Below are positions 10,442 to 49,250 of a stretch of 49,250 bases of DNA, one piece after another. Each line of letters starts with the position of its first letter. Position 1 is the stretch's first letter. The stretch covers positions 1 through 49,250 of the forward strand of contig DAOORA010000029.1 in NCBI GenBank assembly GCA_035389045.1, given 5' to 3'. The notes beneath the pieces are model-generated. The model searched no databases and was not told where the DNA came from. It worked only from the letters and a program-made list of their open reading frames with translations. Source of the stretch: Bacteroidales bacterium (GTDB lineage Bacteria > Bacteroidota > Bacteroidia > Bacteroidales > CAIWKO01). The position numbers were made by a program, and so were the translations under genes.

Positions 10442-11083
10442 TTAATAAAGTTTTTCTTTGGAGTTGGGAAACATAAAGTCGGGGACAGTTAAAAAACATT
10501 TACTGCCCGTAGATAGAAAATTGAATGCTGGTGACTGAAAGGGGATTTCAAGATAGTTCATGAAAACCGTTTTTTCCAGTATTTCATAAGCAGCGATCTT
10601 TTGCAGCCAGAGGCGGCAAGTAGCGATAATAAGTGCACGATCGTTTAAAACCGAAAAGGTGTGTGCAGTTATCAGCGCCTGTTGCGGGGTGACGAGATTT
10701 ATCAGCGCCGGAATCGAATTATAAGTTTCGAGAATATGCCAGGTGTTACGGATCTTTTTGCTTTTAAAAGGTTTTTCATTTTCTTTCATAAAGATCAGAA
10801 GTGAAGTTTGTTCCGAGATATATTTATTCAGGCTGTCCTCATCAATGTTTTTTATGGTAAAGTTCACGGGGCTTACAGAAGACCCCTTTAATATTTCCAC
10901 GGTCTCGAAGGTGCAGGTAAAGAGATTTGTACCGTCCGTTGCCTTTTGATGACTTATGAGCCTGCCCTTAGCAATCAGCCCTGCGTCAGCACACAACCAT
11001 TCAACACTGTTGCCGATATTTATTTCGGAATGTGCAATAAGGAAAAACAACAGGAACAACAATAAAAATCCGTTTTTTTTCAT
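10442..11083 (-). CDS. Hypothetical exported protein
   Basis: 213-aa ORF with an N-terminal hydrophobic signal; ends 6 nt before the methyltransferase start. Confidence 0.7.
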   Translation of the reverse strand: MKKNGFLLLFLLFFLIAHSEINIGNSVEWLCADAGLIAKGRLISHQKATDGTNLFTCTFETVEILKGSSVSPVNFTIKNIDEDSLNKYISEQTSLLIFMKENEKPFKSKKIRNTWHILETYNSIPALINLVTPQQALITAHTFSVLNDRALIIATCRLWLQKIAAYEILEKTVFMNYLEIPFQSPAFNFLSTGSKCFLTVPDFMFPNSKEKLY

Positions 11084-11350: not shown

Positions 11351-12391
11351 ATGATGAATTTCATTAAGTTTCTTCTACTTTTGCTTTGTCTGGTGGTATT
11401 GTTTTCCTGTAATAACGGCGAAGAGAAGAAAAAGAAGGATTCGGCTCCGGTATCCGTAGATATCATCATTGCCAGAGAAGATAGTTTTCCACAGGTGGTA
11501 GAAGTGAATGGCTCTGTGCTTTCTGAAGATATGGTGGAACTTCGCCCGGAGATCAGCGGCCGGTTGACGTATCTTAACATCCCCGATGGCGGCAGTGTGG
11601 TAAAGGGAACGATGCTCGCAAAAATAAATGATGCCGAGCTTCAGGCACAACTGAAACAGGTTCAGGTTCAGTTAGATCTTGCAAAGAAGACCGAACAACG
11701 CCTGAAAAAACTTTTGGCCATCAATGGTGTAAACCAGGCAGACTATGATGAAGCCCAGAACAAGGTGAATCTTTACCAGGCCAATATCGATGTCCTGAAC
11801 ACACAAATAGAAAAAACGGTTATAAAAGCGCCGTTCAGCGGAAAATTGGGATTACGCCAGGTGAGCCAGGGCGCTTACGTTACTCCTCAGACACTTATCG
11901 GAACCCTGGTTGAGACAGATAAAATAAAAATTGATTTTTCAATTCCCGAGGAATATGAAAAGATGATCGGTATCGGAAAAAATATTTTTGTTAAAACGAA
12001 CAATTCAGATGTGAACTTGACAGCTGTTATCAGCGCTATTGAACCTCAGATAAACCCGGCAACCCGAAATCTTAAAGTAAGGGCAAGGCTTCGGGAAGGA
12101 ACGCTTATACCCGGCGCTTTTGTTAAAGTATACCTGAACGAACAGTCAAAAGGAATTGTTGTTCCTACCAGCATCATCATCCCTGATGCATATTCCAATC
12201 AGGTGGTGACCATAAAAAACGGAAAAGCAAAGTTTGTCAGTGTTGAAGTTGGAACCAGAACGGCGGATTTTGCTGAGATAACCAGCGGTCTTAAACCGGG
12301 TGACAGTATAGTGGTAAGCGGCGTCCTGTTTGTAAGGCCTAATGCAAAGGTTAAAATAAAAGGGGTAAACAAAAGCGTTGCCAAAAAATAG
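11351..12391 (+). CDS. RND efflux periplasmic adaptor (membrane fusion protein), lipoprotein
   Basis: LFSC lipobox, VELRPEISG, IKAPFSG and PGAFVKV motifs; TATTTTTG at 11320-11327 supports a start at 11351 or 11354. Confidence 0.92.
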   Translation: MMNFIKFLLLLLCLVVLFSCNNGEEKKKKDSAPVSVDIIIAREDSFPQVVEVNGSVLSEDMVELRPEISGRLTYLNIPDGGSVVKGTMLAKINDAELQAQLKQVQVQLDLAKKTEQRLKKLLAINGVNQADYDEAQNKVNLYQANIDVLNTQIEKTVIKAPFSGKLGLRQVSQGAYVTPQTLIGTLVETDKIKIDFSIPEEYEKMIGIGKNIFVKTNNSDVNLTAVISAIEPQINPATRNLKVRARLREGTLIPGAFVKVYLNEQSKGIVVPTSIIIPDAYSNQVVTIKNGKAKFVSVEVGTRTADFAEITSGLKPGDSIVVSGVLFVRPNAKVKIKGVNKSVAKK

Positions 12392-12434
12392 GAATTTTTA
12401 AAATACCTGTTTCCAAAAAAAGCTAAAGACAATA

Positions 12435-34069: not shown

Positions 34070-37000
34070 TTGAAACAACGGTATTACATATTTTTTTTGT
34101 TATGCCTGACAGCATCCCGTCTTGCTGCACAGGATTTTTCAAATTTCAGAATAAAAAGCCTGCTTATTGAAAACGATACACTGAAGCTTGATTCAGTAAG
34201 TATTATTCCTGGAACAATCCTGATCACCTCAGAAGAAAACTTTTCTCCCGATACGGCCACATATATCATCAATCATGTCCGATCCCTGCTGATTTTTATT
34301 GACAGTAGTTATTTTGAAAATGAAATAAAAAATAAAAAGCTCAGTATCTCTTACCGGGTTTTTCCCCTTTCGTTTGCGGAGGTTCAAAGGCACAAGGACG
34401 GCTCTGTTATCAACGACCAGGTCAAAGAGATCACTAATCCGTTTTTGTTTAAATACGAAACAACAGCTCAGGATGTTTTTAAATGGGGGACACTGAACCG
34501 GAGCGGCAACATTTCGAGGGGCGTGTCGTTCGGGAACAACCAGGACCTTGTCGTGAACTCCAGCCTCAACCTTCAACTTTCGGGCTATCTGTCTGATGAC
34601 ATTCAGGTGCTTGCAGCCATTACCGATAACAATATTCCGATACAGCCCGATGGTAATACCCAGCAACTGCAGGAGTTTGATAAGGTATTTATTCAGTTGT
34701 ATAATAAAAACAATAAACTTATTGCCGGTGATTTTGAGACAGGCCCGCCTAAGAGCTATTTTATGAACTTCTATAAGAAAGCTCAGGGAGCGTTGCTTGA
34801 ATCCAATCTGCTTATACCATTGAAAAACAAGCCTGAAGACAAAATAAAACTCCGGCTTGAAGGATGCGGAGCCTTATCAAAGGGCAGGTATGCAAGGAAT
34901 ATCATTCCCGTGCTGGAAGGAAGCCAGGGGCCTTACAAGCTCACGGGTGTTAACAACGAAAACTATATCATAGTGCTTGCCGGGACCGAACGGGTTTATA
35001 TCGATGGTGTTTTGCTCACGCGCGGGCAGGAAAACGATTACGTAATTGATTACAACCTTGGCGAAATAACGTTCACCCCAAAAAATATCATTACCAAAGA
35101 TAAACGCGTGGTCGTTGAATTTGAATATACCGACCGTTATTATGCACGCACCTTATTTTATGCCGGGGCAGGCATGGAATACAAAAAACTGAATATTCAG
35201 TTTAATTTTTTTTCGGAGCAGGATCTGAAAAACCAACCTTTGCAACAGGATCTTACAGAAAGTGACAAACAGCTTCTGGCGAACATAGGCGACAGTGTGC
35301 AATTGGCTATAGTTCCCAATGTTGACAGTGTTGAATTTTCGAGCACCTATGTGTTATACAAAATGACAGACACCACGGTAAATTCTGTGATTTATGATTC
35401 TGTGTTTGTTTATTCTGTCAATCCCGACAGCGCATGTTATCGGCTTGGGTTTTCGTTTGTAGGTGCAGGAAATGGCAATTATGTGCTTACACAGAGTTCT
35501 GCCAACGGCAGGGTTTTTAAATGGGTGGCGCCGCAGGGCGGACAGGCTTCCGGTGATTATGAGCCGGTGACACGGCTTATCGCTCCCCGAAAAGTTCAGA
35601 TGTATACGCTGGCTTTTGACTATTCGATTGGAAAGACCACCAAAATATCTGTAGAAACGGCTCTGAGCAATAACAATAAAAATCTCTTTTCATCTATGAA
35701 CAAAAATGATGATTTGGGATATGCGGTGAAAGCGGCAGTAGTAAATGCCATACCTTTTGCCAAAAAGAGCAGCAATGAGTGGAGATTTGTTGCCGATATC
35801 ACTAATGAATGGATAAGCCGCTATTTTTCTCCAATAGAACAATACCGCCATGTTGAATTCAGCCGTGACTGGAACATGGACAACAAGGCTGCGGCGGTGG
35901 AAAACATCAGCGGGCTAAAGCTGGGCGTACAGAATAAGAAAAACCAGAACGCTGTTTACCAGCTCCGTTATTACATGCATGGCAGTTCTTATAGTGGATT
36001 TCTGAATCAGCTTGACGTGGCTTACGATTATAAAAATTTCTTCCTGACCGCCAACGGCAGCTACCTGAATACCATTACACCGGCATACCGGACAGCCTAT
36101 TTAAAACAAAAAGCACAACTGATTAAAAAATTCAAATGGTTCTCGGTCGGAATACGTGAGGAGCAGGAACACAATGTTTTCGACATGAAAACTGCCGATT
36201 CTTTGCTGGGGAGCAGTTTTGCATTCAACATTTATGAAGCCTTTCTGGCCAGCCCTGATTCCTCAAAAAACCGGTATAAGGTCAGTTATAAGAAGCGTTT
36301 TGATTATTTGCCCCTGCATAACGAGTTAACGCCTGCCACCGAAGCCGATGATTTCGCACTGGGCGCCGAGTTGACAAAGAATCCCAAAAACACGCTTAAG
36401 GTCAGCGCTACATACCGCATATTGAAAATAAAAGATTCGTTGTTAAGCACTTTAAGACCGGACAATCTTCTGATAGGAAGGATAGAATATTATACAAGAC
36501 TGCTGAAAAATGTCATACAGTCAACTACGTATTATGAGGTTGGTTCAGGCATGGAAGAAAAGAAAGAGTATTCTTATCTGGAAATCACACCGGGGCAGGG
36601 GGTTTATACATGGTCGGATTACAACGGCGATGGTGTGAAACAACTCAACGAATTTGATGTGGCCGTTTTTAAAGATCAGGCCAACTATATACGGATTTTT
36701 ACGCCAACATATGATTATATCAAGACCTATTCCAACCAGTTCAGTGAGGCCATAACTGTTGATCCCGGCATAGTCTGGAAAAATAAAAAGGGTTTCAGGA
36801 AATTCATCTCCCGTTTTTCCATACAGTCATCATACAGTGTGAGCCACAAAAGCGCCGGATCGAATAATTTACAGGCCTATAACCCTTTTATGTTTCGCCT
36901 GAATGACACATCTCTTATGTCTTCAGCGACAACTTTCAAATCAGTATTGTTTTTCAATAAAAACCATCCGAAAATAGCAGTCCAGATATCATATCAGTTA

Positions 37001-37570
37001 AACAGTTCAAAGATGTTGCTGCTTAACGGGTTTGACACAAGGGAACAACAATCGTACGAAATAAAAGTCCGATGGAATATTACCCGAAAGTTTTATACCA
37101 ATATTGATTTTCAGCAGGGGATTAAAATGTATGGTTCGGAGTATTTCACATCGAAAAATTTTGATCTGGATTATTGGGAGATAGAACCACAGTTTATTTT
37201 TCAGCCCAATAACAAGTTTAGGATCAGCATAATATATAATTATTCCGATAAGCATAACACGATCATTTCTCCCAGTGAACGGGCATTAAACCATAACTGC
37301 GGGCTTGAAAGCAAGTATAATTTCCCGGGTAAAGGGACCCTGCAGGCCAAAGTAAATTATATCGACATAAAATATAATGCTTCAGACAATACTTCGCTGG
37401 CTTATGAGATGCTGGGCGGGCTAAAAAATGGCCGGAATATCACCTGGGCGCTTACCTTTCAGCGTAATCTGGGTAATAATTTACAATTGGATATTATTTA
37501 TGATGGCAGGAAGTCCGGCACACTTAAAGCAATTCATGCCGGCAGTGTGCAGGTAAGAGCTTATTTTTAG
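34070..37570 (+). CDS. Large uncharacterised outer-membrane protein (probable beta-barrel, SprA-like internal motif)
   Basis: 1166 aa, TTG start with signal peptide; ERVYIDGVLLTRG..NDYVIDYNLGEITF motif; C-terminal aromatic beta-signal (QVRAYF). Confidence 0.75.
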   Translation: MKQRYYIFFLLCLTASRLAAQDFSNFRIKSLLIENDTLKLDSVSIIPGTILITSEENFSPDTATYIINHVRSLLIFIDSSYFENEIKNKKLSISYRVFPLSFAEVQRHKDGSVINDQVKEITNPFLFKYETTAQDVFKWGTLNRSGNISRGVSFGNNQDLVVNSSLNLQLSGYLSDDIQVLAAITDNNIPIQPDGNTQQLQEFDKVFIQLYNKNNKLIAGDFETGPPKSYFMNFYKKAQGALLESNLLIPLKNKPEDKIKLRLEGCGALSKGRYARNIIPVLEGSQGPYKLTGVNNENYIIVLAGTERVYIDGVLLTRGQENDYVIDYNLGEITFTPKNIITKDKRVVVEFEYTDRYYARTLFYAGAGMEYKKLNIQFNFFSEQDLKNQPLQQDLTESDKQLLANIGDSVQLAIVPNVDSVEFSSTYVLYKMTDTTVNSVIYDSVFVYSVNPDSACYRLGFSFVGAGNGNYVLTQSSANGRVFKWVAPQGGQASGDYEPVTRLIAPRKVQMYTLAFDYSIGKTTKISVETALSNNNKNLFSSMNKNDDLGYAVKAAVVNAIPFAKKSSNEWRFVADITNEWISRYFSPIEQYRHVEFSRDWNMDNKAAAVENISGLKLGVQNKKNQNAVYQLRYYMHGSSYSGFLNQLDVAYDYKNFFLTANGSYLNTITPAYRTAYLKQKAQLIKKFKWFSVGIREEQEHNVFDMKTADSLLGSSFAFNIYEAFLASPDSSKNRYKVSYKKRFDYLPLHNELTPATEADDFALGAELTKNPKNTLKVSATYRILKIKDSLLSTLRPDNLLIGRIEYYTRLLKNVIQSTTYYEVGSGMEEKKEYSYLEITPGQGVYTWSDYNGDGVKQLNEFDVAVFKDQANYIRIFTPTYDYIKTYSNQFSEAITVDPGIVWKNKKGFRKFISRFSIQSSYSVSHKSAGSNNLQAYNPFMFRLNDTSLMSSATTFKSVLFFNKNHPKIAVQISYQLNSSKMLLLNGFDTREQQSYEIKVRWNITRKFYTNIDFQQGIKMYGSEYFTSKNFDLDYWEIEPQFIFQPNNKFRISIIYNYSDKHNTIISPSERALNHNCGLESKYNFPGKGTLQAKVNYIDIKYNASDNTSLAYEMLGGLKNGRNITWALTFQRNLGNNLQLDIIYDGRKSGTLKAIHAGSVQVRAYF

Positions 37571-37584
37571 CCTGCCGCAGCAAA

Positions 37585-38277
37585 TTATTCGCTGATAATA
37601 TGAACCTCTGTCCGGCGGTTTTTCTGACGGCCTTCCTCTGTGTCATTGGTGGCACGTGGCTGTGTGTCTCCATAACCCTTTGCACTCACTCTCACAGCAT
37701 TTATACCTTTTTTGACCAGGAAGTTTTTTACCGAATTGGCGCGGTTAAGAGAAAGTTCGAGGTTTGATGGTGCAGATCCGATATTATCGGTGTGACCGGC
37801 TATCTCTATTACAAGGGCAGGCTTCAGTTTCATCACCTCTGCCAGGTCGTTGAGGGCTTTGTTGGAGTCACTCCGTAATGATGACTTTCCGGTGTCGAAA
37901 AAAACATTTTCCAATGTATATGTTTTTGGCGGATCATACTTTAAGTCGAACTGATATGTATATATTCCTTCCTGTGCAGGTACGTTTATTTGTTCGTAAT
38001 TAACATCTCCCTCAAATGTTTTGTACTTAATATCATAGATATCTCCTTCAGGGACCAGGGCTGAAAATCTTCCTTTTATATCTGTAATACCCTGATACGA
38101 TTTTGTGTTTTTTTGCCCTGTCAGTACTAGTATTTCTCCTGCGCGTGGTTTGCCGTCGATGCTGCTGACTACGATATTCAACAAAGCATTGGTTTCGGAA
38201 GGTTCCAATGGCTGGGCTTTTAAAAAAACTGAGATAAAAAATATAAGAATAACAATCAAAAAAACTGATTTTAGCAT
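37585..38277 (-). CDS. OmpA-family peptidoglycan-binding protein
   Basis: VFFDTGKS, IAGHTDN, LSLNRA, GYG..QP and NRRTE motifs. Confidence 0.92.
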   Translation of the reverse strand: MLKSVFLIVILIFFISVFLKAQPLEPSETNALLNIVVSSIDGKPRAGEILVLTGQKNTKSYQGITDIKGRFSALVPEGDIYDIKYKTFEGDVNYEQINVPAQEGIYTYQFDLKYDPPKTYTLENVFFDTGKSSLRSDSNKALNDLAEVMKLKPALVIEIAGHTDNIGSAPSNLELSLNRANSVKNFLVKKGINAVRVSAKGYGDTQPRATNDTEEGRQKNRRTEVHIISE

Positions 38278-38485
38278 AAAATTCTTTCTTACAATACAAT
38301 ATATAAACGCCAGGTTATTCGGAATATTTGTTATTCAATATGTTTTTATCCATATTGCGATGCACTACGTAATTATGATACCTTGTTTTAGGCTTTTCAG
38401 ACGAAAATTTATAAAAACAAATCACTGTCTGAAAATTAAAAATCATTCCACTATGGGCGAAAGACTATCCGAGCGTTTTTCTGAT

Positions 38486-38833
38486 TTAATTACTTTGCGG
38501 ATGCCGGTTCGGACAATCTTTATTAATAAAATCGTCTGTTTTTGAATCTTCAGTAGTATAGCCGATGTTTTCGATAACTTTGACCAGTTCTTTTCTGTTT
38601 GTTATACCTTCCACATACTTTACCGCAACAATCTTGGTTTCAATATCAGCAACAGCCTCTATAACACCGGCAGATTTTTTCAGACCATTTTCAACAAAAG
38701 TTTTGCCTTGAGGACAGTGAAAAGTAACCTTTATTTTTTCTTCCTTTATATTCTGTACGGTCTGGCCATATACGCTTCCTGCAAAGCAAAAAACTGCAAA
38801 TAATAAAAACAGACGGGCAATTTGTTTTTTCAT
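38486..38833 (-). CDS. Exported heavy-metal-associated (HMA-like) domain protein, paralog 2
   Basis: Signal peptide; HCPQGK and GV...AD.ETK.V.V.Y...IENIGY HMA-fold pattern. Confidence 0.75.
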   Translation of the reverse strand: MKKQIARLFLLFAVFCFAGSVYGQTVQNIKEEKIKVTFHCPQGKTFVENGLKKSAGVIEAVADIETKIVAVKYVEGITNRKELVKVIENIGYTTEDSKTDDFINKDCPNRHPQSN

Positions 38834-39153
38834 AATTATAAAATTAAATAATCTGTTTTGTTATGAAAATAATAATATGCTACGCAAAAATAAATAATGT
38901 GTTTCACAAAACCAAAAATAAATACATTCGTCATGATCAAAAGCAGTTATTATATATTTCGGCATTCGTTTTTTCCATTGTAAACTGTTTTTTGGGGAGT
39001 CATGACCGGAATATTGTTGTTTCTTATAATCAGATTTTAAAAAAAACTCATATGTAAAACGCACTCACATACGATTTAAATAATCTATTAAGTCATTAAT
39101 TAACAAGAGAATATATTGTAGAAGTTCTTTGATGACGGATCCATTCGGAAAAT

Positions 39154-39183
39154 AAAAAAAGGCGCAAAAAATCCGCGCCTTTT
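39154..39183 (-). terminator. Rho-independent terminator (probably bidirectional)
   Basis: AAAAAGGCGC-loop-GCGCCTTTTT hairpin just downstream of the stop at 39202. Confidence 0.7.
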
Positions 39184-39201
39184 ACCGTAATACGGTTTGT
39201 C

Positions 39202-39549
39202 TTATTTATGTTCCGGCTGTTCGTGCGAGCAGGCCTTTTTGATATTCGTGCCCGCTTGGGTGTCTTCGGTGGCATAGCCGATTTCTTCAATGGCTTTCAC
39301 AAGTTTTTCCCTGTTGGTTTTTCCATCAACATAATTGATCGTTACGATTTTTGTTTCGACGTCTGCCACAACGCTTGTAACGCCCTCAACCTTTTTGAGT
39401 TCCTTTTCAAGAAGAGCTTTTCCGTTCGGGCAATGAAACCCTGTTTTGATTTTTTCTTCTTTAATAACCTCTTTTTTCTGTCCGAAAGCGCTTCCGGCAA
39501 CACAGAACAGTAATGCCAGTATCAATACGTTTAAAAGTTGTTTTTTCAT
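39202..39549 (-). CDS. Exported heavy-metal-associated (HMA-like) domain protein, paralog 1
   Basis: Signal peptide; HCPNGK and EGV..V.AD.ETK...IEEIGY; same length (115 aa) as the neighbouring paralog. Confidence 0.78.
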   Translation of the reverse strand: MKKQLLNVLILALLFCVAGSAFGQKKEVIKEEKIKTGFHCPNGKALLEKELKKVEGVTSVVADVETKIVTINYVDGKTNREKLVKAIEEIGYATEDTQAGTNIKKACSHEQPEHK

Positions 39550-39565
39550 ATTTTAAAGGTTTAAA

Positions 39566-40471
39566 TTATTTTTCCAGTTTAAAAGTTGTTGTCCCTATAA
39601 CATTGTTTTCGGCAAAAATGTCGACGGTATAAGTTCCCGGAGTCAGTTCTTTCGATTTGTTCCAGTACAAACAAACATCAACAGGCTTATTGTTGTAAGC
39701 TATTTGTTCTTTTGCCGAATACTGTAATTTTTTACCGTCATAATCAAATGAATACTCATCGCCCGTTCCCTGAATTAATATATCTCCGTTGGGTTCTGCA
39801 ATGCGTGCATAGACGTTTTTGCTTCCAGCCGAAGCAATAGCATTTTCGCCAATGGTAAAACAAACGCGTATTTTTTCAACCTTTTTTGTCCGCTGGGTAG
39901 GAATTTCCTTTACTTTATTCCTGATAAATATACCATCCGAATTGATATCATAAGTTGTAAGCGCCGCGCCTTTGTTTACGGTTTCGGTGAGTGAGGTGTT
40001 TTCAGAGGACAGTTGTTTATTTTCTTCTGACGTGGAATCGAGTACTGTCTTGATATGAAAATTTTCTGCGACAAGCTCTTTATTTTGATTTTTCAGGTCT
40101 TCAATCTGCTGTTCGTATTCTTTCAGTCGTGTTTCCATGCTGGCCACCTGGTTTTTGTATTTAGCCACAGAACCTTCAGAATTTTTTATTTTTTGCAGCA
40201 ATTTTTCTACCTGCGCTTTTTCTTCGTTAAACATATCGGAAAGTTGCTCGTTGTCTTTGGCAAGTTGCTCGTATTCCTTTTTCATATTTTCCAGTTTGGC
40301 GATCGTCTGGTCTTTTTCTTCAGTTACACTGACAATGGTATCGCTTTGCTGTTTAACGGTCTTACTGAAACTGATCACTTTCCATGTCAGAATTCCGCAG
40401 GCTATCAGCAGAAGAATTGACAAATACATAAAGTAATTGGGACTTTTCCGTACTTCCGTGTTTGTTTCCAT
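39566..40471 (-). CDS. Membrane-anchored coiled-coil protein with C-terminal beta domain, paralog 2
   Basis: N-terminal TM, long heptad region, KIRVCFTI.EN...VYARI..P...GTY.V.IF. Confidence 0.8.
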   Translation of the reverse strand: METNTEVRKSPNYFMYLSILLLIACGILTWKVISFSKTVKQQSDTIVSVTEEKDQTIAKLENMKKEYEQLAKDNEQLSDMFNEEKAQVEKLLQKIKNSEGSVAKYKNQVASMETRLKEYEQQIEDLKNQNKELVAENFHIKTVLDSTSEENKQLSSENTSLTETVNKGAALTTYDINSDGIFIRNKVKEIPTQRTKKVEKIRVCFTIGENAIASAGSKNVYARIAEPNGDILIQGTGDEYSFDYDGKKLQYSAKEQIAYNNKPVDVCLYWNKSKELTPGTYTVDIFAENNVIGTTTFKLEK

Positions 40472-40501
40472 GTGGTTTTGATTTTAAGATTTAATACATT
40501 A

Positions 40502-41398
40502 TTATTTAAGGGTCAACTGGGTCTGGCCGATTTCCTTACCATCGGTAAATACGGCGATATGGTATGTCCCGGCAACAATACGGTCGGTTTTTTCATAGTA
40601 CAGATTTACATTGATCGGGGTTCCTTTGTAATAAACCTGTTCCTGAAGGGAATACATAATCTGCTGGCCATCGTATTCGAAGGAATTTCCTTCATTGAGG
40701 ATGGCATTATCCGGTCGTGCAATACGGACATAAACTGTTTTTAAGCCTTCGGTGACCAATGGATTTTTGGATAAGGTGAATGAAATTTTTATTTTTTCAA
40801 TTCTCTTGGCTTTATCTTCTAACTCTTCTTTTTTACCTCCCTGTCTGATACGGATTCCATAGGCGTTGAGCGAATGTGCCTGAAGAACGGCTGCCTGATT
40901 GATCTGCTCTTTCAGGGCTTCTTTATCTTTTTCAAGCAACTGGCTTTTATCTTTTTCCAGTTTTATATTTTCCTGCATTCCTTTTACTTCGGTTTTCAGG
41001 TTTTCATTTTCTTTAAGTAACTTATCTATTTGTGCCACATAATCCTGGGTTATGCCTCTGAGGTAGTCCAGTTTGCGTTGGATTTGATGTTTTCCGGCAT
41101 TGCTTTCAATAAGTTTCTGAATTTCGTCGGCCTGTGCCTGTATGGTACTGTCTTTAAGGCTCAGATCTTTTGTCAGATTCCCGTATTCGGTTCTGATCTT
41201 TTCATGTTCGGTCAGCAGAGAATCAAGTTCATTTTGTAAAACTGCCCGCTCACTGACAGCTTTGTCCTTTTCGATAATAAAAGTATTAACTTTGGAACGA
41301 CTTAGTATGAGCATAACCAGCAGGGCAAGAATAACAGCGGATTCAATACCTATAATTATTTTATATTTTTTTACTTTATTTTCGCCAACGGTGTCCAT
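40502..41398 (-). CDS. Membrane-anchored coiled-coil protein with C-terminal beta domain, paralog 1
   Basis: Same architecture (KIKISFTL.KN...VYVRI.RP...GTYHIAVF); TAATTTTG (minus strand) at 41415-41422. Confidence 0.8.
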   Translation of the reverse strand: MDTVGENKVKKYKIIIGIESAVILALLVMLILSRSKVNTFIIEKDKAVSERAVLQNELDSLLTEHEKIRTEYGNLTKDLSLKDSTIQAQADEIQKLIESNAGKHQIQRKLDYLRGITQDYVAQIDKLLKENENLKTEVKGMQENIKLEKDKSQLLEKDKEALKEQINQAAVLQAHSLNAYGIRIRQGGKKEELEDKAKRIEKIKISFTLSKNPLVTEGLKTVYVRIARPDNAILNEGNSFEYDGQQIMYSLQEQVYYKGTPINVNLYYEKTDRIVAGTYHIAVFTDGKEIGQTQLTLK

Positions 41399-41474
41399 CA
41401 CGTGATATTTTTTACAAAATTACTTAATTTTATCAATATATATAAAGAATAAACTCAAAATACCGGTATCTGTT

Positions 41475-42164
41475 GTGTCATACTTTTATGATTTTATATC
41501 GTTGTTTATTCCGCGTGTTTGTTACTCATGCGGTAATACGCTGTTCAGGCACGAAGAGGTTCTTTGCAGCTATTGTCTTCACCAGCTTCCGAAAACAAAT
41601 TATCATGCCGAAGAAAACAACCCTGTTTGTATGATTTTCTGGGGAAGGGTAACTATAAACCACGCATCCTCGATGTATTATTTTGCCAAAGGCGGCAAGG
41701 TTCAGCATTTGCTTCACCAGTTAAAATATAAAGGGATAAAAGAAATCGGCATATATACCGGTAAGTTATACGGTGTAACCCTGAAAAAATCGCCTTTTTA
41801 TACCGATGTCGATGTGATAATTCCCGTTCCTCTTCATCCCAAAAAACAAAGGAAAAGAGGTTATAATCAGAGTGAGATGTTTGCGTGCGGTCTGGCGGAA
41901 GCATTTTCGAAGCCTTATGATATCAAAACCCTTGTGCGCACGTATGCTTCGGAAACGCAGACAAAAAAATCAAGGTTCCGGCGTTGGGAAAATGTAAAAG
42001 AGATTTTTGCATTAAAAGACCATCAGCATATGATCAACAAGCATATACTGCTGGTTGATGATGTGGTGACTACGGGCGCCACCCTCGAAGCCTGTGCAAA
42101 CATGCTGCTTCAGATTCCCGGGGTAAAGGTAAGTATTGCCACTATTGCCTGTGCGATCCGGTAG
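41475..42164 (+). CDS. comF: ComF family protein (zinc ribbon plus PRTase domain)
   Basis: CxxC...CxxC, PVPLH, RGYNQS and LLVDDVVTTGATL motifs; GTG start. Confidence 0.93.
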   Translation: MSYFYDFISLFIPRVCYSCGNTLFRHEEVLCSYCLHQLPKTNYHAEENNPVCMIFWGRVTINHASSMYYFAKGGKVQHLLHQLKYKGIKEIGIYTGKLYGVTLKKSPFYTDVDVIIPVPLHPKKQRKRGYNQSEMFACGLAEAFSKPYDIKTLVRTYASETQTKKSRFRRWENVKEIFALKDHQHMINKHILLVDDVVTTGATLEACANMLLQIPGVKVSIATIACAIR

Positions 42165-42201
42165 CGTTTTCGAGTTACCGGTAGTGCGGCTCAAGGCACT
42201 C

Positions 42202-42328
42202 GTCTAACGACAAGCATATCACAAAGCTAACTGCTTTTTGGACATTTGCAAAATGAAAATAACTTTCGCGAAGCGACCTTGAATTTGCAAATACTTTGAT
42301 GTCCACACGCATTACTGGGGGGTTGTGC
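42202..42328 (-). repeat. Degenerate attC-like site F
   Basis: Coding strand: TAG stop overlapping GCACAAC ... GTTAGAC; 119 bp AAC-to-GTT; inner stem TGGACAT/ATGTCCA and TTGCAAA/TTTGCAA; outer arms do not pair. Confidence 0.5.
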
Positions 42329-42620
42329 TATGTAACTGTTTTATTTGTAAATTCATACAATTTGTCAGTGTTTATTCCTTTTTCTGTTACCTTTTGCCAA
42401 TTTATTTTTGTCAGTGATTTTAACCTTAAAGTGTCTTGAAAGAGTTTAAACGCTTTTTTTGACAATTACTATTGTAGTATTCTTCAATAGTGCTTGATAA
42501 CTCTGCAATCATCTCGCACGTAAAATCATTTTCCTCAGTTTCGAGATTCATAGTTATATTATAAAACACAAAATCAAATTGATGCGATGAGTCTATCTGT
42601 TCGAAAATAACACCTTGGTC
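42328..42620 (-). pseudogene. Decayed cassette ORF remnant
   Basis: DQGVIFEQ...MNLETEENDFTCEMIAEL... shifts frame near the T7 tract (42454-42460) into KKAFKLFQ...NKTVT*, whose TAG overlaps site F; upstream in-frame stops. Confidence 0.5.
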
Positions 42621-42693
42621 TTATAATTTTATTTTTCGTAATTATTAATAGAATATACAGATTCTTCTTGGCATGAACATTCAATTTATATTC

Positions 42694-43020
42694 AACCAGA
42701 TTCAACTGCTTATTTAATAGGAATAATAGGTTAATATTAAGAAAATCTCCGCGCCTTTTGGTCCAAATAATATCACCCTGCTGTCTCACGAACAAATCAA
42801 TTACTTATGGGCACCTCTAAAAACTTCAAATTTCTTCGTTCATCTTCGTTCTTCAAGTCCTCATGTACGCTCAGTACACTGCGGTTTTCAGAACTTCGAC
42901 TGCCTCGAACTTTTTTGTTTTTAGAGGCGCCCGATCAAGGTTATTAGAGATGCCCTTATTCTAACATTTCCAAACCCACAAAACTCCGCATTAAATAAGC
43001 TTGCAGTTATGCACTGCAAA
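42694..43020 (-). repeat. attC-like site E interrupted by a MITE
   Basis: GTTATGCAC at 43006 just after the FISUMP stop; arms GCTTATTTAAT (42708-42718) and ATTAAATAAGC (42990-43000); about 164 bp once the insertion is removed. Confidence 0.55.
42809..42955. mobile_element. MITE-like non-autonomous element (147 bp)
   Basis: Left IR GGGCACCTCTAAAAAC; right IRs GTTTTTAGAGGCGCCC (42917-42932, 15/16) and GTTATTAGAGATGCCC (42940-42955, 14/16); TTAT direct repeat on both flanks. Confidence 0.8.
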
Positions 43021-43024
43021 TAAA

Positions 43025-43981
43025 TTAGTTCTTTATCAACTTTTGCTGATATCTCTCTTCTTCTTCAGACAATCTAATTAGATAAATTCCTGATGTCAGG
43101 GAACTAATATCTATCCCGTTTGATCCACTTGTCAAATCGCATTGTAAAACACAATCTCCTATAATGTTATACACTTGCATTTTTAAATCTTTTCTGTCGC
43201 CACAGTCAATAATTATTTTATCAATTGCTGGATTTGGATAAATTTGAATTTGTTTATCAATACTGTTCTCATTAATTTGAGTAGCCAAAATATCCATAAT
43301 GCACCTAACTGAAAAACCGGAAGCCTTCTCGTAACTGCCTCGGTTTATCTGAGATTTACTAGGATCCAGTGTGCGTTCCCATACTTGATTACCAGCACTA
43401 CACGCTGTACCTGTCCACCAGTCACCTTGGTCACAAATAGCGTAGAATGTACCATTATTATAGTAACGCCAACCGCCGGGAAGAGCAGTAAAACCACTGC
43501 TATTGGTTGCCCCCGTGTTTAAACTATTCCAATGTGTCGTTCCTACTTCTTTTAATTTATTGCCAATATCTGTACCTGCCCAACCTATGATAGTGGTATC
43601 AATGGTGTTATCCAAATATTTTTCCATAATATTCCATTCTCCATCACTGGGAACATGCCAGCCTGTTGGACATATATTATTGGCCTCGGTGGCAGCATAC
43701 CAATTGTATAAAGCACCATAAATAGGTGCATAAGTACTGGAATCATTATCATAATAACATCTTCCACCAGTATTAAGACTGATCCATGTTGCGTTAGATG
43801 TAATATTTGGAATAGTAGTTCCATCTAAATAATGTGTAACTTTCAAATTTTCTTTCATCCAAACCTGTGTTCCAATAGTAAGAGTATTATAAACATTCCC
43901 GTCGATGTCTGTTACTGTTTGTGCTTGATTCTTAAATGTTAAAAATGCGAGTCCGGCAAATAGTAAAATTGCGTGTTTCAT
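43025..43981 (-). CDS. FISUMP (Fibrobacter succinogenes major paralogous) domain protein with T9SS sorting domain
   Basis: DIDGNVY, QVWMKENL, YGALYNWYA, CPTGWHVPS, GFTALPGG and GFSVRCI motifs; C-terminal IYPNPA...GIYLIRL...KLIKN. Confidence 0.92.
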   Translation of the reverse strand: MKHAILLFAGLAFLTFKNQAQTVTDIDGNVYNTLTIGTQVWMKENLKVTHYLDGTTIPNITSNATWISLNTGGRCYYDNDSSTYAPIYGALYNWYAATEANNICPTGWHVPSDGEWNIMEKYLDNTIDTTIIGWAGTDIGNKLKEVGTTHWNSLNTGATNSSGFTALPGGWRYYNNGTFYAICDQGDWWTGTACSAGNQVWERTLDPSKSQINRGSYEKASGFSVRCIMDILATQINENSIDKQIQIYPNPAIDKIIIDCGDRKDLKMQVYNIIGDCVLQCDLTSGSNGIDISSLTSGIYLIRLSEEEERYQQKLIKN

Positions 43982-44150
43982 ATTTAAAAAATTTGTGTGT
44001 AAAATTGAATTAGTGATTGACTACTTTGGCTTTATGTTAAAAAAGTGTCAAAAATATTTTATTTATTCTTGGTTGGTATGGCCTTGTGGATTTATGGAGA
44101 TTTCATAATGTCTTGTTTCGTTAGTTGTTAATAATCAAGGTTTTTATTAG

Positions 44151-44292
44151 GTACGACGATCCCGTGGCTGCTTTTCGCCCCGCAATTTAGTAACTTTCTT
44201 GTCAAAATAAACCATAATTTTCAAATTTTCACAATCCTGTCAACCGTGCTATGCCTGCGGGGTGAAAGCAGACACAAGTTATGCAACGTTAA
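44151..44292 (-). repeat. attC-like site D (family 1), distal GTT changed to GTC
   Basis: Plus strand GAC(44155-57)...GTGGCTGCTTTTCGCCCCGCA...TGCGGGGTGAAAGCAGACAC..GTT(44278-80); 126 bp. Confidence 0.8.
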
Positions 44293-44328
44293 TTTTGTTT
44301 TTTTTAATCATGTCGTGTCAGAGTGAAA

Positions 44329-45186
44329 TTAATTCTTGACGACTATTGCTTTTCTAAAATATGTATTATCATTAGTTTTCAGACGATAAATATAAAACCC
44401 ATTTGCACAGTTTTCTGAAGAAAATTCAATAATATATTCCTTGTCTTTATGAACTTCATTGTCAAATATTCTTTTAATGTGTCTGCCATTAATATCAAAT
44501 ATGTCAAGTTTTGCATTAGTATTATAAGGTACGGAAAAAGTGAAACTTGTCTTATCGTTAAAAGGATTAGGAATATTTTTTAATGAAACATTTTTATTTA
44601 TTTGACTAATATTTTCTTCATCAATAGTCACAGGAGTGCAATCCAGAGTTCCAAAACCATTGTTTTGGGTAAGAGTAACTGTACAGACATCAGGGGTGGT
44701 TCTTGATATCATCATAATATAATATTGACCTGTTATTCCATTTGGGATATAACAAAATTCACCAAATGAAGCACTACTACTGCAATCGATCATGTTCAGT
44801 GTTGGATACCATACACTTGGACCCGGAGAGCCATGAGTTGGCGTATAAGTGCCTGCTGTAAGTTGTGCAACACATGGTGTTGTAAGTGAGGTAAAAGGAC
44901 CCCAGCAAACAAAATTAAGATTATACGATGGTGTGCATGTTATTTCAAGAGCAAGGTCCCCTGAATTAAGAATCTTCAAATAAAACCATGAAAAATTAGG
45001 TTGGGGTCCATACAGACAACCATAATTTGGGCCAATTTCTGAACTGTCAGCAAGAGATCCAGCACTTAAATTAACAGGCTGTCCAGTACAAATTAATGTT
45101 GCACTGTCGCATGAAAAGCCCTGTGATTTACAAATGATCGATATTAGGAAAAACACCAGTCCGAAAAAGTAAAATTTTGTCTTCAT
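44329..45186 (-). CDS. Cys-containing secreted protein with T9SS sorting domain (cassette gene)
   Basis: Signal peptide; GPNYGCL...WFY...CWGPF...GQYYIMMI domain; C-terminal PNPFN...GFYIYRL...IVVKN. Confidence 0.85.
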   Translation of the reverse strand: MKTKFYFFGLVFFLISIICKSQGFSCDSATLICTGQPVNLSAGSLADSSEIGPNYGCLYGPQPNFSWFYLKILNSGDLALEITCTPSYNLNFVCWGPFTSLTTPCVAQLTAGTYTPTHGSPGPSVWYPTLNMIDCSSSASFGEFCYIPNGITGQYYIMMISRTTPDVCTVTLTQNNGFGTLDCTPVTIDEENISQINKNVSLKNIPNPFNDKTSFTFSVPYNTNAKLDIFDINGRHIKRIFDNEVHKDKEYIIEFSSENCANGFYIYRLKTNDNTYFRKAIVVKN

Positions 45187-45197
45187 GGTTTTATTTT

Positions 45198-45349
45198 TTA
45201 ATGTTGCATAACGACGGTCGAGGCTTGCTATTCGGCGGGGCGAATCGAAGCCGTTTCCTGTCCAAATACGCTGAGGCTTGATAAAAGAACTGCACTGTCC
45301 TATAAACCGTCTGCCCCGCTGGTAGCAAGCCTTTGTTGTATGCTGGCAA
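45198..45349 (-). repeat. attC-like site C (family 2)
   Basis: Plus strand AAC(45210-12)...AGGCTTGCTATTCGGCGGGGC...GCCCCGCTGGTAGCAAGCCT..GTT(45335-37); 128 bp. Confidence 0.85.
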
Positions 45350-45363
45350 TTTGTTCAATAGCA

Positions 45364-47064
45364 TTAATTTACCCTTTCAAATATTATATTCTTTGCTCTT
45401 GGATTATTTATTACAAGGCTTTTAATTGCTCCGTTTTCTTCTAAAAAGGAAATTGATTGTATTAAACCTAAATTGCTTTTAAATGTCAGGTTTTCTGAGT
45501 GTTCAAGAATTACTTCATTCGGAAAGGTGGAACTTTGAATTATCAATTTATCGTTTTCATATTTAATATCATATTTAATATCAAGCTCCTTAGAATAGAA
45601 AGTACCTATTAACTTGTCGTAATTAATATTTGTTTCTTTTTTGTTTTCTTCAACTTTTAAAGCTAGGTAACTATTTCCATTTTGTTCAAGCGTATGGCTG
45701 TTTACCTTTCCATTTCTTAAATGAAATACGAATTCAGCTTTAGCTTCTTTTACAAAATATACTGAATCTGATTTGGCATATAATTTATAGTTCTTGTTAT
45801 ACATGTTTAAAAAATACTCATCACCTTCTTTGAAAAAAGTCAGATAGCAATCTTTGTCGTCAACCTGTTGGTATTTACCTGCACAAAAAGCGAAAAAATC
45901 ATCGTTTAATTCTTGCTCAGTTGACACACTTTCTTTTGTTTTCTTCTCTGTCTTATCGCCAAATAAAATATCAGCAATGGCATTTAATATTTTTTTAGGG
46001 TCAAGTGTTCCATTATTACTTAAAATAACCACACCAACACTTTCTTCAGGGAAATAAACTATACCTGAGCGGTAACCGCCCCAAGAACCATCATGATAAT
46101 AAGCTTTCTTGTCTTTTATTTCAGTTATGTATAATCCATAACCATAATCTATGGTTTTGCTATTGTTTAAATTACCTTTTGTGGTTATTTTATTAAAAGC
46201 ATCATTGCCACCCAATATCTTACTATTAAAGTTTGTCAACCATTTTGACATATCAGCAGTGCTGCTCATTAGCGAACTAGAACCAAAAGCACTGAGATTA
46301 TTAGAAAAAGAAAGGTAATCTTTTCCATTATAAACATAAGAATTAGCTATTACGTTTTCTTCTGATTTGTTACTTTCAACAAAGTAAGTATTCTCCATTC
46401 CTATAGGAGCAAATATATTTTCATGTATCCAACTTTTAAATGTTGTATCTGTAACGGCTTCAACTATTTTTGCCAAAAGATTGTAATTTGAATTACTATA
46501 TAAAAATTCAGTGCCCGGAGTAAAGTTTAAACTTTCTTGTTTCTTAAGGATTTCATAAATGTCATTTAATGAAAGTGGCTCTTCGGGCTGCCATCCTTTC
46601 AACGCAAATAGCGTTGGCCAATCTCTAATACCGGAGGTGTGATGAACAAGTTGATATATTGTAATGTCACTCATAGCCTCCGATAAATCAGGTAGATATT
46701 TAATGATTTTATCATTAATATTGATTTTACCTTTTTCTTCTAAAAGAGCTATTGCCATTCCTGTAAATTGTTTGCTATCAGAGGCTATATCAAAAATCGT
46801 ATTTTCGGTAATTGGCGTTTTTTTGTCTAAATCAGCAGAACCGAAATTCCCTTTATATAAGATAGAATTCTTCTTTGTAATTATTACCGACAATCCAGGC
46901 TTATTTTTTCCATTTAAATCTCCTGTTTTATTTAAAACTTGCTGTTCAAAGTACGAATCTAATTGTGGTTTCAACGCCCTTTCCTGTACTGTCTTGCACT
47001 GGATAAGACTAATAATTACCATTAATCCTAATCCAAGTGTTCCAATTTTTTTCTTTTTCAACAT
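45364..47064 (-). CDS. Serine hydrolase, beta-lactamase/PBP (AmpC-like) family, possible lipoprotein (cassette gene)
   Basis: SxxK in IASDSKQF, HTSGI, PGTEFLYSNSNY and HDGSWGGY motifs; LIQC possible lipobox. Confidence 0.9.
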   Translation of the reverse strand: MLKKKKIGTLGLGLMVIISLIQCKTVQERALKPQLDSYFEQQVLNKTGDLNGKNKPGLSVIITKKNSILYKGNFGSADLDKKTPITENTIFDIASDSKQFTGMAIALLEEKGKININDKIIKYLPDLSEAMSDITIYQLVHHTSGIRDWPTLFALKGWQPEEPLSLNDIYEILKKQESLNFTPGTEFLYSNSNYNLLAKIVEAVTDTTFKSWIHENIFAPIGMENTYFVESNKSEENVIANSYVYNGKDYLSFSNNLSAFGSSSLMSSTADMSKWLTNFNSKILGGNDAFNKITTKGNLNNSKTIDYGYGLYITEIKDKKAYYHDGSWGGYRSGIVYFPEESVGVVILSNNGTLDPKKILNAIADILFGDKTEKKTKESVSTEQELNDDFFAFCAGKYQQVDDKDCYLTFFKEGDEYFLNMYNKNYKLYAKSDSVYFVKEAKAEFVFHLRNGKVNSHTLEQNGNSYLALKVEENKKETNINYDKLIGTFYSKELDIKYDIKYENDKLIIQSSTFPNEVILEHSENLTFKSNLGLIQSISFLEENGAIKSLVINNPRAKNIIFERVN

Positions 47065-47106
47065 GCTCTGTTAATGTTAAATTTAGAAATGTGCGTTCTG
47101 TTTCTT

Positions 47107-47255
47107 TTGCTTGCATACAACGCCGTGTGGCTGCTTTTGAGCCGCATTTTATTTTCCGTTCCTGTCAAAATTCCCATAGCTTTCAAATTTGTCCCAAACT
47201 GTCAAACTGTCCCGCACTGCGGCTTTAAAGCAGACACGAGTTACCAGCAGGTTTA
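47107..47255 (-). repeat. attC-like site B (family 1)
   Basis: Plus strand AAC(47119-21)...GTGGCTGCTTTTGAGCCGCA...TGCGGCTTTAAAGCAGACAC..GTT(47240-42); 124 bp. Confidence 0.85.
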
Positions 47256-47258
47256 TTG

Positions 47259-48857
47259 TTAATCTTCAAATCCAATTTTCAATATTATTTCTTCACACGC
47301 CTTTGTAATTTTTGCAGTCCTGACATTTTCTGTCGGATAAATTAAATAGCCTGAACTTTGTACAGCTTTGAAATTATATGTCCCGATATTCATATTATAA
47401 GATTGTGACGCTTTGCCAGGTATTGTTTCAATAAACTTACTTCCTTGATATAAGTTGTATGGATTGGAAGATTTATTTTGAAATGTAATGATGCCTTGAT
47501 TCTTCTTCTCACAGTCTGGAGTAAGCAGTTCTTTTAAAACATTTTCAAAAACAGCATCAACCTTGTCTAGTTCGGATTTTATTTTCTTATCAAGATTATA
47601 GTTCTTTATGTCGGCAAGATAATAATTGTTATTACAACAGTTCGAATCACTTGGACAAAAGATGCCTGAACAATTATTGTACTTGACTTCCAAATCCGTT
47701 AAGTACTTTTCGGCTACACTGTTTAATGAAATAAAAACTGGTAAGACCTCATCATATTTGTTCATAATTTTTGTTATATAATTTTGAGGCATCTCAAATT
47801 CATTTAGATTTTGTTTCAATTGTTCTTTACCTGAACCTGTAACTAATTCGTCAAGGAGTGTTTTTGCTGAATATACCTTGATTACTGCTTCATTTATTTT
47901 TGTTAATTGATTTTGTTTCTTGTCGTCCCAATATATTCCTTCAATGCCATATAACGTAAAAGGTGAGTAATAATATTGAGTAATGATGCTTTGATTTGGG
48001 TCGGAAATATTTTTTATTGCACTTTCAATTATTGAAGCAATTGCAACAGCTTTATCCTGTGAATCTCCATTTAAAATGTCTTTTATTTGTCCTTGTATTA
48101 CGCTCTGTTCAATAGCTGGGCCATCAATTTCAACTGAAATTGAGAACTCATTTTGTTCTAATTGTCTATTGGTCCAATTTCCATTTACAATTTCAAAAGA
48201 ACCGGAACCTTTAAGAGGAATATCACCACCTGTCTGAACTGATGAATTTTCATTCTCATTGCTGCTATTCTTAGTTCCTGTCTTGGTTAATATTACAGAA
48301 ATACTACTCTCTTTGCGTATTCCACTAATATAATGAGTGCCATAAAAACTAATAAAATCCTGAAACCTTTTCTGAGTTATAAGCGATTTTGCTTCGGTTA
48401 TTAATTGAGGGTCTGTCTGAAATGAATAAACACCAAAGTCAACATTTGCATTAAATATTAGTCTTTCTTCATCCTTGATATTCTTGTTAGCATATTCTTC
48501 TAATTTTTGTCCGCCTAAGGTGAATAAATTAAGAAAACTGACTTTTCCTGATGCACCTCTTTTTTTAAAGTCATTATACTCAGAATTAGTTTTTGTATAA
48601 AACAAATGAATAGAAGTTTTCTTACCTGTCTGTTGCGGTGTGAGTTTATTCGGGTTTGATGTCTCTGAGGTAAAGCAAGATCTTGTTTGTTTATAAATAT
48701 CGTTTATGTGAAAACCTTTACCAATTTTAATTGGTGGCGCTAAATTGTCCTTGTTAAAATAATTTGCATCGAATACACTTGTGGATTGAGCATGTATGAA
48801 ACTAAATGCTGTCAGTGTCAAGATGAAAGTCAATGTCCTTTTAAGATAACTTTTCAT
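47259..48857 (-). CDS. Secreted protein with MACPF-like signature (cassette gene)
   Basis: True start ATG 48857 (MKSYLKRTLTFILTLTAFSFIHAQ signal); IGKGFHI near the N-terminus and FISFYGTHYISG; the track's longer N-terminus runs through site A. Confidence 0.6.
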   Translation of the reverse strand: MKSYLKRTLTFILTLTAFSFIHAQSTSVFDANYFNKDNLAPPIKIGKGFHINDIYKQTRSCFTSETSNPNKLTPQQTGKKTSIHLFYTKTNSEYNDFKKRGASGKVSFLNLFTLGGQKLEEYANKNIKDEERLIFNANVDFGVYSFQTDPQLITEAKSLITQKRFQDFISFYGTHYISGIRKESSISVILTKTGTKNSSNENENSSVQTGGDIPLKGSGSFEIVNGNWTNRQLEQNEFSISVEIDGPAIEQSVIQGQIKDILNGDSQDKAVAIASIIESAIKNISDPNQSIITQYYYSPFTLYGIEGIYWDDKKQNQLTKINEAVIKVYSAKTLLDELVTGSGKEQLKQNLNEFEMPQNYITKIMNKYDEVLPVFISLNSVAEKYLTDLEVKYNNCSGIFCPSDSNCCNNNYYLADIKNYNLDKKIKSELDKVDAVFENVLKELLTPDCEKKNQGIITFQNKSSNPYNLYQGSKFIETIPGKASQSYNMNIGTYNFKAVQSSGYLIYPTENVRTAKITKACEEIILKIGFED

Positions 48858-48886
48858 TTGTTTAGATTGTTTATGTTTTTTTCTTT

Positions 48887-49036
48887 TAAACTTGCTGGTA
48901 ACGGTTTGGCGGTTGCTGTTCGGTGGCGATTTCACCACTAAGGTTTCCACGAAGAACAAAGGTTTCAAAAAGCACTTCACTGTCATACGAAGCACTGTCC
49001 CGCCACTGACAGCAAACGCCTGTTACCGCCTGGTGT
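48887..49036 (-). repeat. attC-like site A (family 2)
   Basis: Plus strand AAC(48900-02)...GGCGGTTGCTGTTCGGTGGCG...CGCCACTGACAGCAAACGCC.GTT(49022-24); 125 bp. Confidence 0.85.
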
Positions 49037-49250
49037 TCTTTCATCTGTCTTTGTAAACCATTGTCAACATTGAGTTTCTCTGTCATTGTCATTTTACTTT
49101 CTTGTCTGTCTGTGTCGGCTCGTATGTTTGCGTTTTTTATTTTTCTTAAAGGGTCAGGAAATTTTTTTAAAACAATTTTTCTTTAGCGTTGGCTTGTAAG
49201 CCGCCGGCGAAATGCATCTTTCCCATCTGATCAAATAGATGCAACTTGCG

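Follow-up and report, generated by a model that had tools for sequence, protein, structure and literature searches.

Integrons are the textbook example of a system that recombines by way of folded single-stranded DNA. The sedentary chromosomal integrons of Vibrio provide an example of arrays with repeats of ~125 nt. In canonical attC sites (Nivina et al., 2016, PMC5027507), the extrahelical bases lie near L'' on the bottom strand, in the 3' arm of the strand that folds. Integrons are described as very rare in Bacteroidetes in the account given with IntegronFinder 2.0. The Bacteroidales carry recombinase-associated acquired interbacterial defence (rAID-1) clusters, which were found in 226 of 423 genomes of the order and whose cargo consists of orphan immunity genes (Ross et al., 2019; 10.1101/471110). 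As defined in that paper, a rAID-1 cluster has an XerD-like recombinase at its 5' end with >44% identity to the Bacteroides fragilis reference, and at least two co-directional downstream genes with a G+C content of <=41%. Here we describe a window of 49,250 nt, the entire contig C29 of a Bacteroidales genome (4.46 Mb in 135 contigs, 96% complete). The right end of this contig holds three co-oriented minus-strand cassette open reading frames (ORFs), with an element of ~130 nt flanking each. Comparison of these elements with related sequences leads us to a probability of roughly 0.78 that all four serve as attC-like recombination sites in an integron-like cassette array of the rAID-1 kind.

Of the published systems, rAID-1 comes nearest. 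The likeness to rAID-1 clusters, as that paper presents them, extends to the bacterial order, an Xer-like tyrosine recombinase at the 5' end, co-directional genes of low G+C and repeated intergenic sequences. The proportion of carriers is also similar, at about half of the genomes (226/423 there vs 76-78/151 here). The right end of the window contains three co-oriented cassette ORFs, and the G+C content is 0.32-0.33 in the 44-49 kb region vs 0.33-0.51 in the bins before 44 kb (mostly 0.37-0.47); the link to a recombinase comes from a relative's complete genome (G019) and from three loci of other genomes (L092, L093 and L097), not from C29. Assignment to the rAID-1 kind rests on these array traits and not on the recombinase-identity rule of the paper. 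The rAID-1 paper describes enriched intergenic motifs, and we saw in it no analysis of hairpin, strand, crossover or covariation. Our literature search, which did not extend to subscription journals or bioRxiv supplements, found no description of the hairpin structure of these sites. What is new here is the end at which crossover is placed, the position of the bulge in the arm that is cleaved, the conservation of the wobble and the presence of repeats in the loop.

Sites were collected with nhmmer and a first covariance model (R1), and then with a second model (R2), R1 having misaligned the inner 3' stem in most sites. The four window sites were matched by R2 with E values of 1e-11 to 1e-39, all on the + strand, at the places where a first-pass annotation of the letters alone had put them. 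From left to right they are site D (44152..44284, also seen as a fold), site C (45209..45341, stem type AGGCT-TGCTA), site B (47115..47246, stem type GTGGC-TGCTTT, D-like) and site A (48897..49028, stem type GCGGT-TGCTGT), the last being the best match to R2 at 137.7 bits. Read on the + strand, the consensus consists of ATAACG, a spacer of 5-6 nt, a stem of ~10 bp, often one unpaired base, a G+C-rich stem of 8-9 bp and a loop of 63-75 nt, followed by the return arms, 2 nt and GTTA, with the TAAC and GTTA boxes pairing. Among the 115 distinct sites, 111 had a 5' spacer of 5-6 nt, 111 had a 3' spacer of 2 nt, and in 108 the 5' arm was 3-5 nt longer. Within the boxes, AAC was conserved at 95-98% and GTT at 96-99%.

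The conservation of this structure was evident from covariation. Our alignment A6 comprised 119 matches from many genomes in 115 distinct rows, with 23 pairs and 2592 stem cells. Paired cells made up 93.8% of the total; shuffling lowered this to 67.8% and sliding the partner to 24-51%. The observed share is inflated because A6 was fitted to the structure of the model. Double changes numbered 580 cells vs 157 in shuffles, and the covariation score of 0.602 (0.158 shuffled) was reached by none of 500 shuffles. RNAalifold predicted the same stem from A6, and 18 of its 19 pairs had double changes; the stem types can be read directly in the rows as TGCTA/TAGCA, TGGTA/TACCA, TGTAT/ATACA, TCCTT/AAGGA and TTGCG/CGCAA. 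The first-pass annotation had proposed, from the four window sites, a hairpin under selection, and had named a lack of covariation in a larger alignment as the outcome that would speak against it. Since covariation was present and the stem was recovered by RNAalifold, that outcome was not what we saw, and selection on the hairpin is supported, the compensatory changes lying far above both the shuffled and the slid controls. The paired changes on which the proposal was built are in the sequence: D and B align along their length (75.2% over 121 nt) and differ by CGCCCCGCA/TGCGGGGTG vs GAGCCGCA/TGCGGCTT, while C and A differ by TGCTA/TAGCA vs TGCTG/CAGCA and by CGGCGG/CCGCTG vs CGGTGG/CCACTG, and both contain the loop motif AAAG.ACT.CACTGTC.TA. 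Grouping C and A as one family held for architecture and loop motif; the two nevertheless gave no BLAST match at E<=1 and belong to different sub-types within the genome. The idea of two alternating families did not survive. The order D, C, B, A does alternate, yet this happens by chance in 2 of the 6 possible orders of two sites of each type. Since arrays in G019 contain runs of one site type, with at least five consecutive sites of the same type, the alternation in the window carries no general meaning.

The sites are spread widely. In this genome, nhmmer and R1 detected 11 strong copies, four on C29, two on C16 and one each on C43, C93, C116, C1 and C46, and R2 added a twelfth, shorter copy on C16 to give 12 matches. 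Contig C16 carries a second small array, in which sites at L014:6113-6251, 10556-10687 and 12323-12417 lie between minus-strand ORFs of 158-592 aa; one of these sites is missing its 5' half and another has a short loop. Of 23 genomes from the same family, 20 had matches. With R2, the sites were detected in 78 of 151 genomes that sample the order at roughly one per family. In the complete genome G019, the array exceeds 50 kb, spans the coordinate origin and includes runs of ~440-bp cassettes of one site type. When contigs of four DNA sequencing runs were compared with 43000-49250, they contained same-family sites in other contexts only, and none bridged a deleted or swapped cassette.

To place the boundaries of the mobile unit, we used cassette copies and the points at which their homology breaks. 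The segment C29:44164-45213, composed of site D and a 285-aa ORF, recurs at C43:1141-91 with 96.7% identity. The match stops at the AACG of the next site (45213, in site C), and the two copies have unlike upstream sites, the one on C43 being of another type and cut by the contig end. In a scan of every site pair and its flanking DNA, homology that entered from the left stopped at site positions 7-9 in 27 of 27 blocks, and 70 rightward blocks started at -10 to 4 (43 blocks), 10-12 (8), 76 (1) or 116-125 (18, which are insertions of an insertion sequence, IS), although these counts are far from independent, since tandem cassette repeats in the single genome G019 supply most of them. The breakpoints at ATAACG would therefore place the crossover within ATAACG on the + strand, which corresponds to CGTTAT at the coding-strand 3' end of the site. 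As delimited by these breaks, the cassette is an ORF with its downstream site, as in integrons, at a resolution of a few bases. We also considered whether the spacer might be a classical overlap region, which could be inherited from one partner or the other. This was rejected, because the spacer was shared in 0 of 22 pairs in which only the left flank was common and so never followed that flank; it was shared in 26 of 55 pairs with only the site body in common.

The association of the sites with a recombinase was visible where enough flanking DNA was available. The best integrase match in this genome is a 502-aa protein on contig C124, which scored 219.7 bits against the integron-integrase model TIGR02249 (cut-off 265) and passed a XerA-type model (223.8 vs 220 bits). 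It matches positions 7-180 and 238-315 of TIGR02249 with only ~15 residues in between, so that positions 181-237 are skipped and the IntI insertion is absent. Contig C124 ends 246 nt past the recombinase stop codon at ...AACGTTAT, where the first cassette would join, and this end is probably an attI-like entry point of the array. The same end (L001:1-260) contains two TGTGGCAGCAA repeats. In G019, a 405-aa recombinase homologue stands at the array end, co-directional with the cassette ORFs. Among nine related recombinase loci taken from public genomes, all of them metagenome-assembled, the three with 6 kb of downstream DNA (L092, L093 and L097) contained four site matches, all downstream of the recombinase and on the opposite strand, and none upstream; four other loci end 40-420 nt past the recombinase stop. 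Recombinase homologues with 33-70% identity were present in 76 of the 151 genomes of the order. Both recombinase and sites occurred in 53 genomes, sites only in 25, recombinase only in 23 and neither in 50 (odds ratio 4.6, p 1e-5).

The sites might instead be the ends or landing pads of a transposable element, either IS91-like with its own tyrosine recombinase or resembling a miniature inverted-repeat transposable element (MITE), so that genes move by transposition. We consider this explanation improbable. It draws on an IS in G019 (for example L058:14057-16500 and L060:1021-3400), which is 2.4 kb long, encodes a 304-aa tyrosine recombinase together with an IS91-family Y2 transposase and occurs in 16 copies. 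The left end of this IS follows a GTT in 8 of 8 aligned copies, and in 7 of the 8 this GTT is that of a hairpin site, with the IS starting directly behind it. The recombinase of the IS also belongs, broadly, to the Xer/IntI-like kind, and single dispersed sites occur in our genome on C1, C93, C116 and C46. Against transposition as the source of the sites, no Y2_Tnp gene was found in this genome despite its 12 sites, while the 16 copies in G019 served as a positive control for the search. Moreover, the IS has conserved ends of its own that begin after the site GTT, and the cassette boundaries lie at ATAACG, which is the opposite end of the site. The insertion points thus indicate that the G019 IS is an element that targets hairpin sites. 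The IS1111-attC group comprises insertion sequences that target integron attC sites with an IS110-type enzyme. The G019 element resembles them in inserting at one fixed position of a hairpin site, after GTT, but it differs in having a tyrosine recombinase and an IS91-family Y2 HUH transposase in place of an IS110-type enzyme, and it lies in the genome of a relative, not in the window.

The question of which strand folds bears on whether the hairpin functions as DNA or as RNA, both of which the first-pass annotation had allowed. The + strands of the four window sites all folded better than their shuffles, with z scores of -2.1 to -3.0 (site A, -2.97), and the - strands did so less strongly (-0.9 to -1.8). 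Pair 27-213 was G.T in 106 of 115 sites, and pair 16-224 was C.A or G.A in 57 sites. With these two pairs and one box pair set aside, the other 20 pairs had 52 G.T vs 11 A.C combinations on the + strand. Because of this bias of G.T over A.C, the + strand, which is complementary to the cassette ORFs, pairs better than its complement, as does the bottom strand in integron attC sites. The wobbles are G.T on the non-coding strand, and an mRNA would therefore contain A.C mismatches at these positions; a structure acting in the mRNA needs the opposite bias. Of the two options in the annotation, folding as single-stranded DNA is accordingly the one favoured over mRNA structure, by the wobbles as well as by the homology breaks at the sites, and the single strand may well fold in vivo. 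The same evidence makes it quite improbable that the sites are RNA elements between genes, such as terminators, insulators, processing sites or small RNAs with a role in the transcript. Such a role would fit the location of each site between two co-oriented genes and the conservation of the loop sequence. A terminator-type T-run is absent, however, and a scan of 37000-49250 with Rfam 15 gave nothing at or near any site at E<=1. Nor would a role in the transcript fit the breaks in cassette-copy homology at the sites or the clustering of sites downstream of a recombinase.

The comparison with integrons concerns the site itself. As in attC sites in published descriptions, a folded single-stranded hairpin carries a 5'-AAC in the cleaved box and a GTT in its partner, the structure is kept while the sequence varies, crossover is placed at the coding-strand 3' GTT, there is one ORF per cassette and the non-coding strand folds. 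The sites differ from attC in three ways. The unpaired bases form a bulge of 5-6 nt vs 2 nt on the R'/L' arm, where canonical sites have extrahelical bases near L''; a near-invariant G.T wobble is present; and the loop of 63-75 nt has two conserved direct repeats, compared with the variable terminal structure of attC. The recombinase differs as well, in lacking the IntI insertion. It is very improbable that a classical integron, or a cluster of attC sites lacking an integrase (CALIN), is present with ordinary attC sites and a true IntI that went unassembled: AAC...GTT boxes, a bulged hairpin, one-ORF cassettes and crossover at the coding-strand 3' GTT would all fit, but no protein reached the IntI cut-off in this genome (219.7 vs 265 bits), in genomes G007 and G009 or in the complete G019, which has sites and no IntI, the bulge and the conserved loop are unlike those of attC, and integrons are very rare in Bacteroidetes according to IntegronFinder 2.0.

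The length of the loop was 63-75 nt in most sites, and ACTGTC was conserved at 85-99% in the site alignment. The sequence is kept across the order, since CTGTC was present in 26 of 37 loops from other families vs 1.5 expected. When 103 distinct loops were compared with themselves, similarity appeared at offsets of 18-19 nt and was strongest at 37 nt. The self-similarity at 37 nt therefore corresponds to two direct repeats of a GAAGCAC...CTGTC unit, and the loop motif reported in the first-pass annotation is the second of them. Some sites in the metagenome contigs have a shorter loop with one repeat. RNAalifold predicted no consensus helices inside the loop. The annotation had taken the conserved loop to suggest a role beyond recombination. 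While its conservation was borne out, such a role was not established, and it is at least as likely that the recombinase or a helper protein binds to the loop. Between site D (loop 44191-44254) and its copy on C43 (L009), we counted differences in 28 of 64 loop columns, compared with 1 of 57 in the arms and 14 of 858 in the ORF, which suggests either exchange or replacement of loops between sites or local hypermutation.

Taken as an attC-like system, the array would work as follows. Each cassette would consist of one minus-strand ORF followed by its own site of ~130 nt. The strand complementary to the coding strand, here the + strand, would fold as single-stranded DNA into a bulged hairpin with a paired TAAC/GTTA box, a spacer of 5-6 nt opposite 2 nt, a two-part stem of ~20 bp with the near-invariant G.T and the loop of 63-75 nt. 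An Xer-like tyrosine recombinase devoid of the integron-integrase insertion, in this genome presumably the 502-aa protein on C124, would cut the folded strand inside its 5' ATAACG, and this cutting would excise cassettes and insert them adjoining the recombinase gene. The direct repeats of the loop (GAAGCAC...CTGTC, ~37 nt apart) may be protein-binding sites that aid assembly of the complex, perhaps for the N-terminal extension of the recombinase. A broader joint reading is possible, but we hold it tentatively and would not call it probable. It sees a second, structurally distinct form of single-strand cassette recombination in Bacteroidales, carried out by an Xer-like recombinase without the IntI insertion, with the bulge on the cleaved arm and a loop with two direct-repeat binding sites, perhaps read by the 120-225-aa N-terminal extension like arm-type sites. 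The system would then have been invented in parallel to integrons or be their deep sister, not a degenerate integron, and would be parasitised by an IS that lands at GTT and combines a tyrosine recombinase with an IS91-type transposase.

Several observations weigh against reading the elements as attC-like sites of a rAID-1-kind array. The co-occurrence of sites and recombinase is loose, with the 25 genomes that have sites and no recombinase match and the 23 with the reverse. No recombinase lies in the window, and C29 could not be joined to C124. The duplicated cassette of the window itself begins after the spacer (position 12-13) and not at AACG, and to this must be added the uneven origin of the breakpoints and the fitted alignment mentioned above. 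Since canonical attC sites have their unpaired bases on the other arm, the rules worked out for integrons may not carry over. Finally, the cassettes are large, with ORFs of 0.9-1.7 kb, and two of the three match proteins with type IX secretion system (T9SS) sorting or a beta-lactamase fold, whereas the rAID-1 paper describes orphan immunity genes, of which none was recognisable here. Neither the three window ORFs nor 12 G019 cassette ORFs that were scanned matched an immunity family, and most had no family at all.

The array on C29 can be followed from its distal end on the left toward the recombinase end on the right. Site D is the last, distal site and belongs to the cassette of the 285-aa ORF (44329..45186, - strand), which has a T9SS C-terminal sorting domain (Pfam PF18962, 7.9e-9). 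The 5' box of site D reads CGACG where the family has TAACG, and its 6-nt spacer is unlike that of its copy on C43; the CGACG change in this terminal site may be what fixes the distal end of the array. Between sites C and B lies a 566-aa ORF (45364..47064, - strand) with a beta-lactamase/transpeptidase fold (PF00144). Its product is below every NCBIfam cut-off, with a score under those of all named beta-lactamases. The third cassette ORF (47259..48857, - strand), 532 aa long from an ATG at 48857, gave a weak MACPF match (E 0.0058, below cut-off) and was assigned to no family. The tail of the next cassette (49029..49250, - strand) follows site A toward the recombinase end, and its final 55 bases are a repeat at the contig end. 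This 55-mer (49196-49250) is identical in reverse to the first 55 bases of contig C134 and 85% alike at C64:4495-4549. It is a small intergenic repeat with a short hairpin, and an Rfam scan of the loci that hold it gave nothing relevant. The assembly probably stopped at the right end of C29 due to this repeat. A join of C29 to the recombinase contig C124 was considered and rejected, since the only contig start to which the terminal 55-mer corresponds is that of C134, in reverse orientation; this is a shared repeat and provides no join.

Sites of this kind are present in about half of the sampled Bacteroidales families, and although they follow the logic of attC, their recombinase is a different one and their unpaired bases are placed differently. 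They thus offer a natural comparison for deciding which features of attC are needed for strand choice and cleavage. They would also provide an explanation for how arrays of the rAID-1 type could gain and lose genes. Bacteroidota are usually said to lack integrons, as in the account given with IntegronFinder 2.0, and standard integron finders would miss what appears to be a widespread cassette pool in the Bacteroidales of gut, sludge and sediment.

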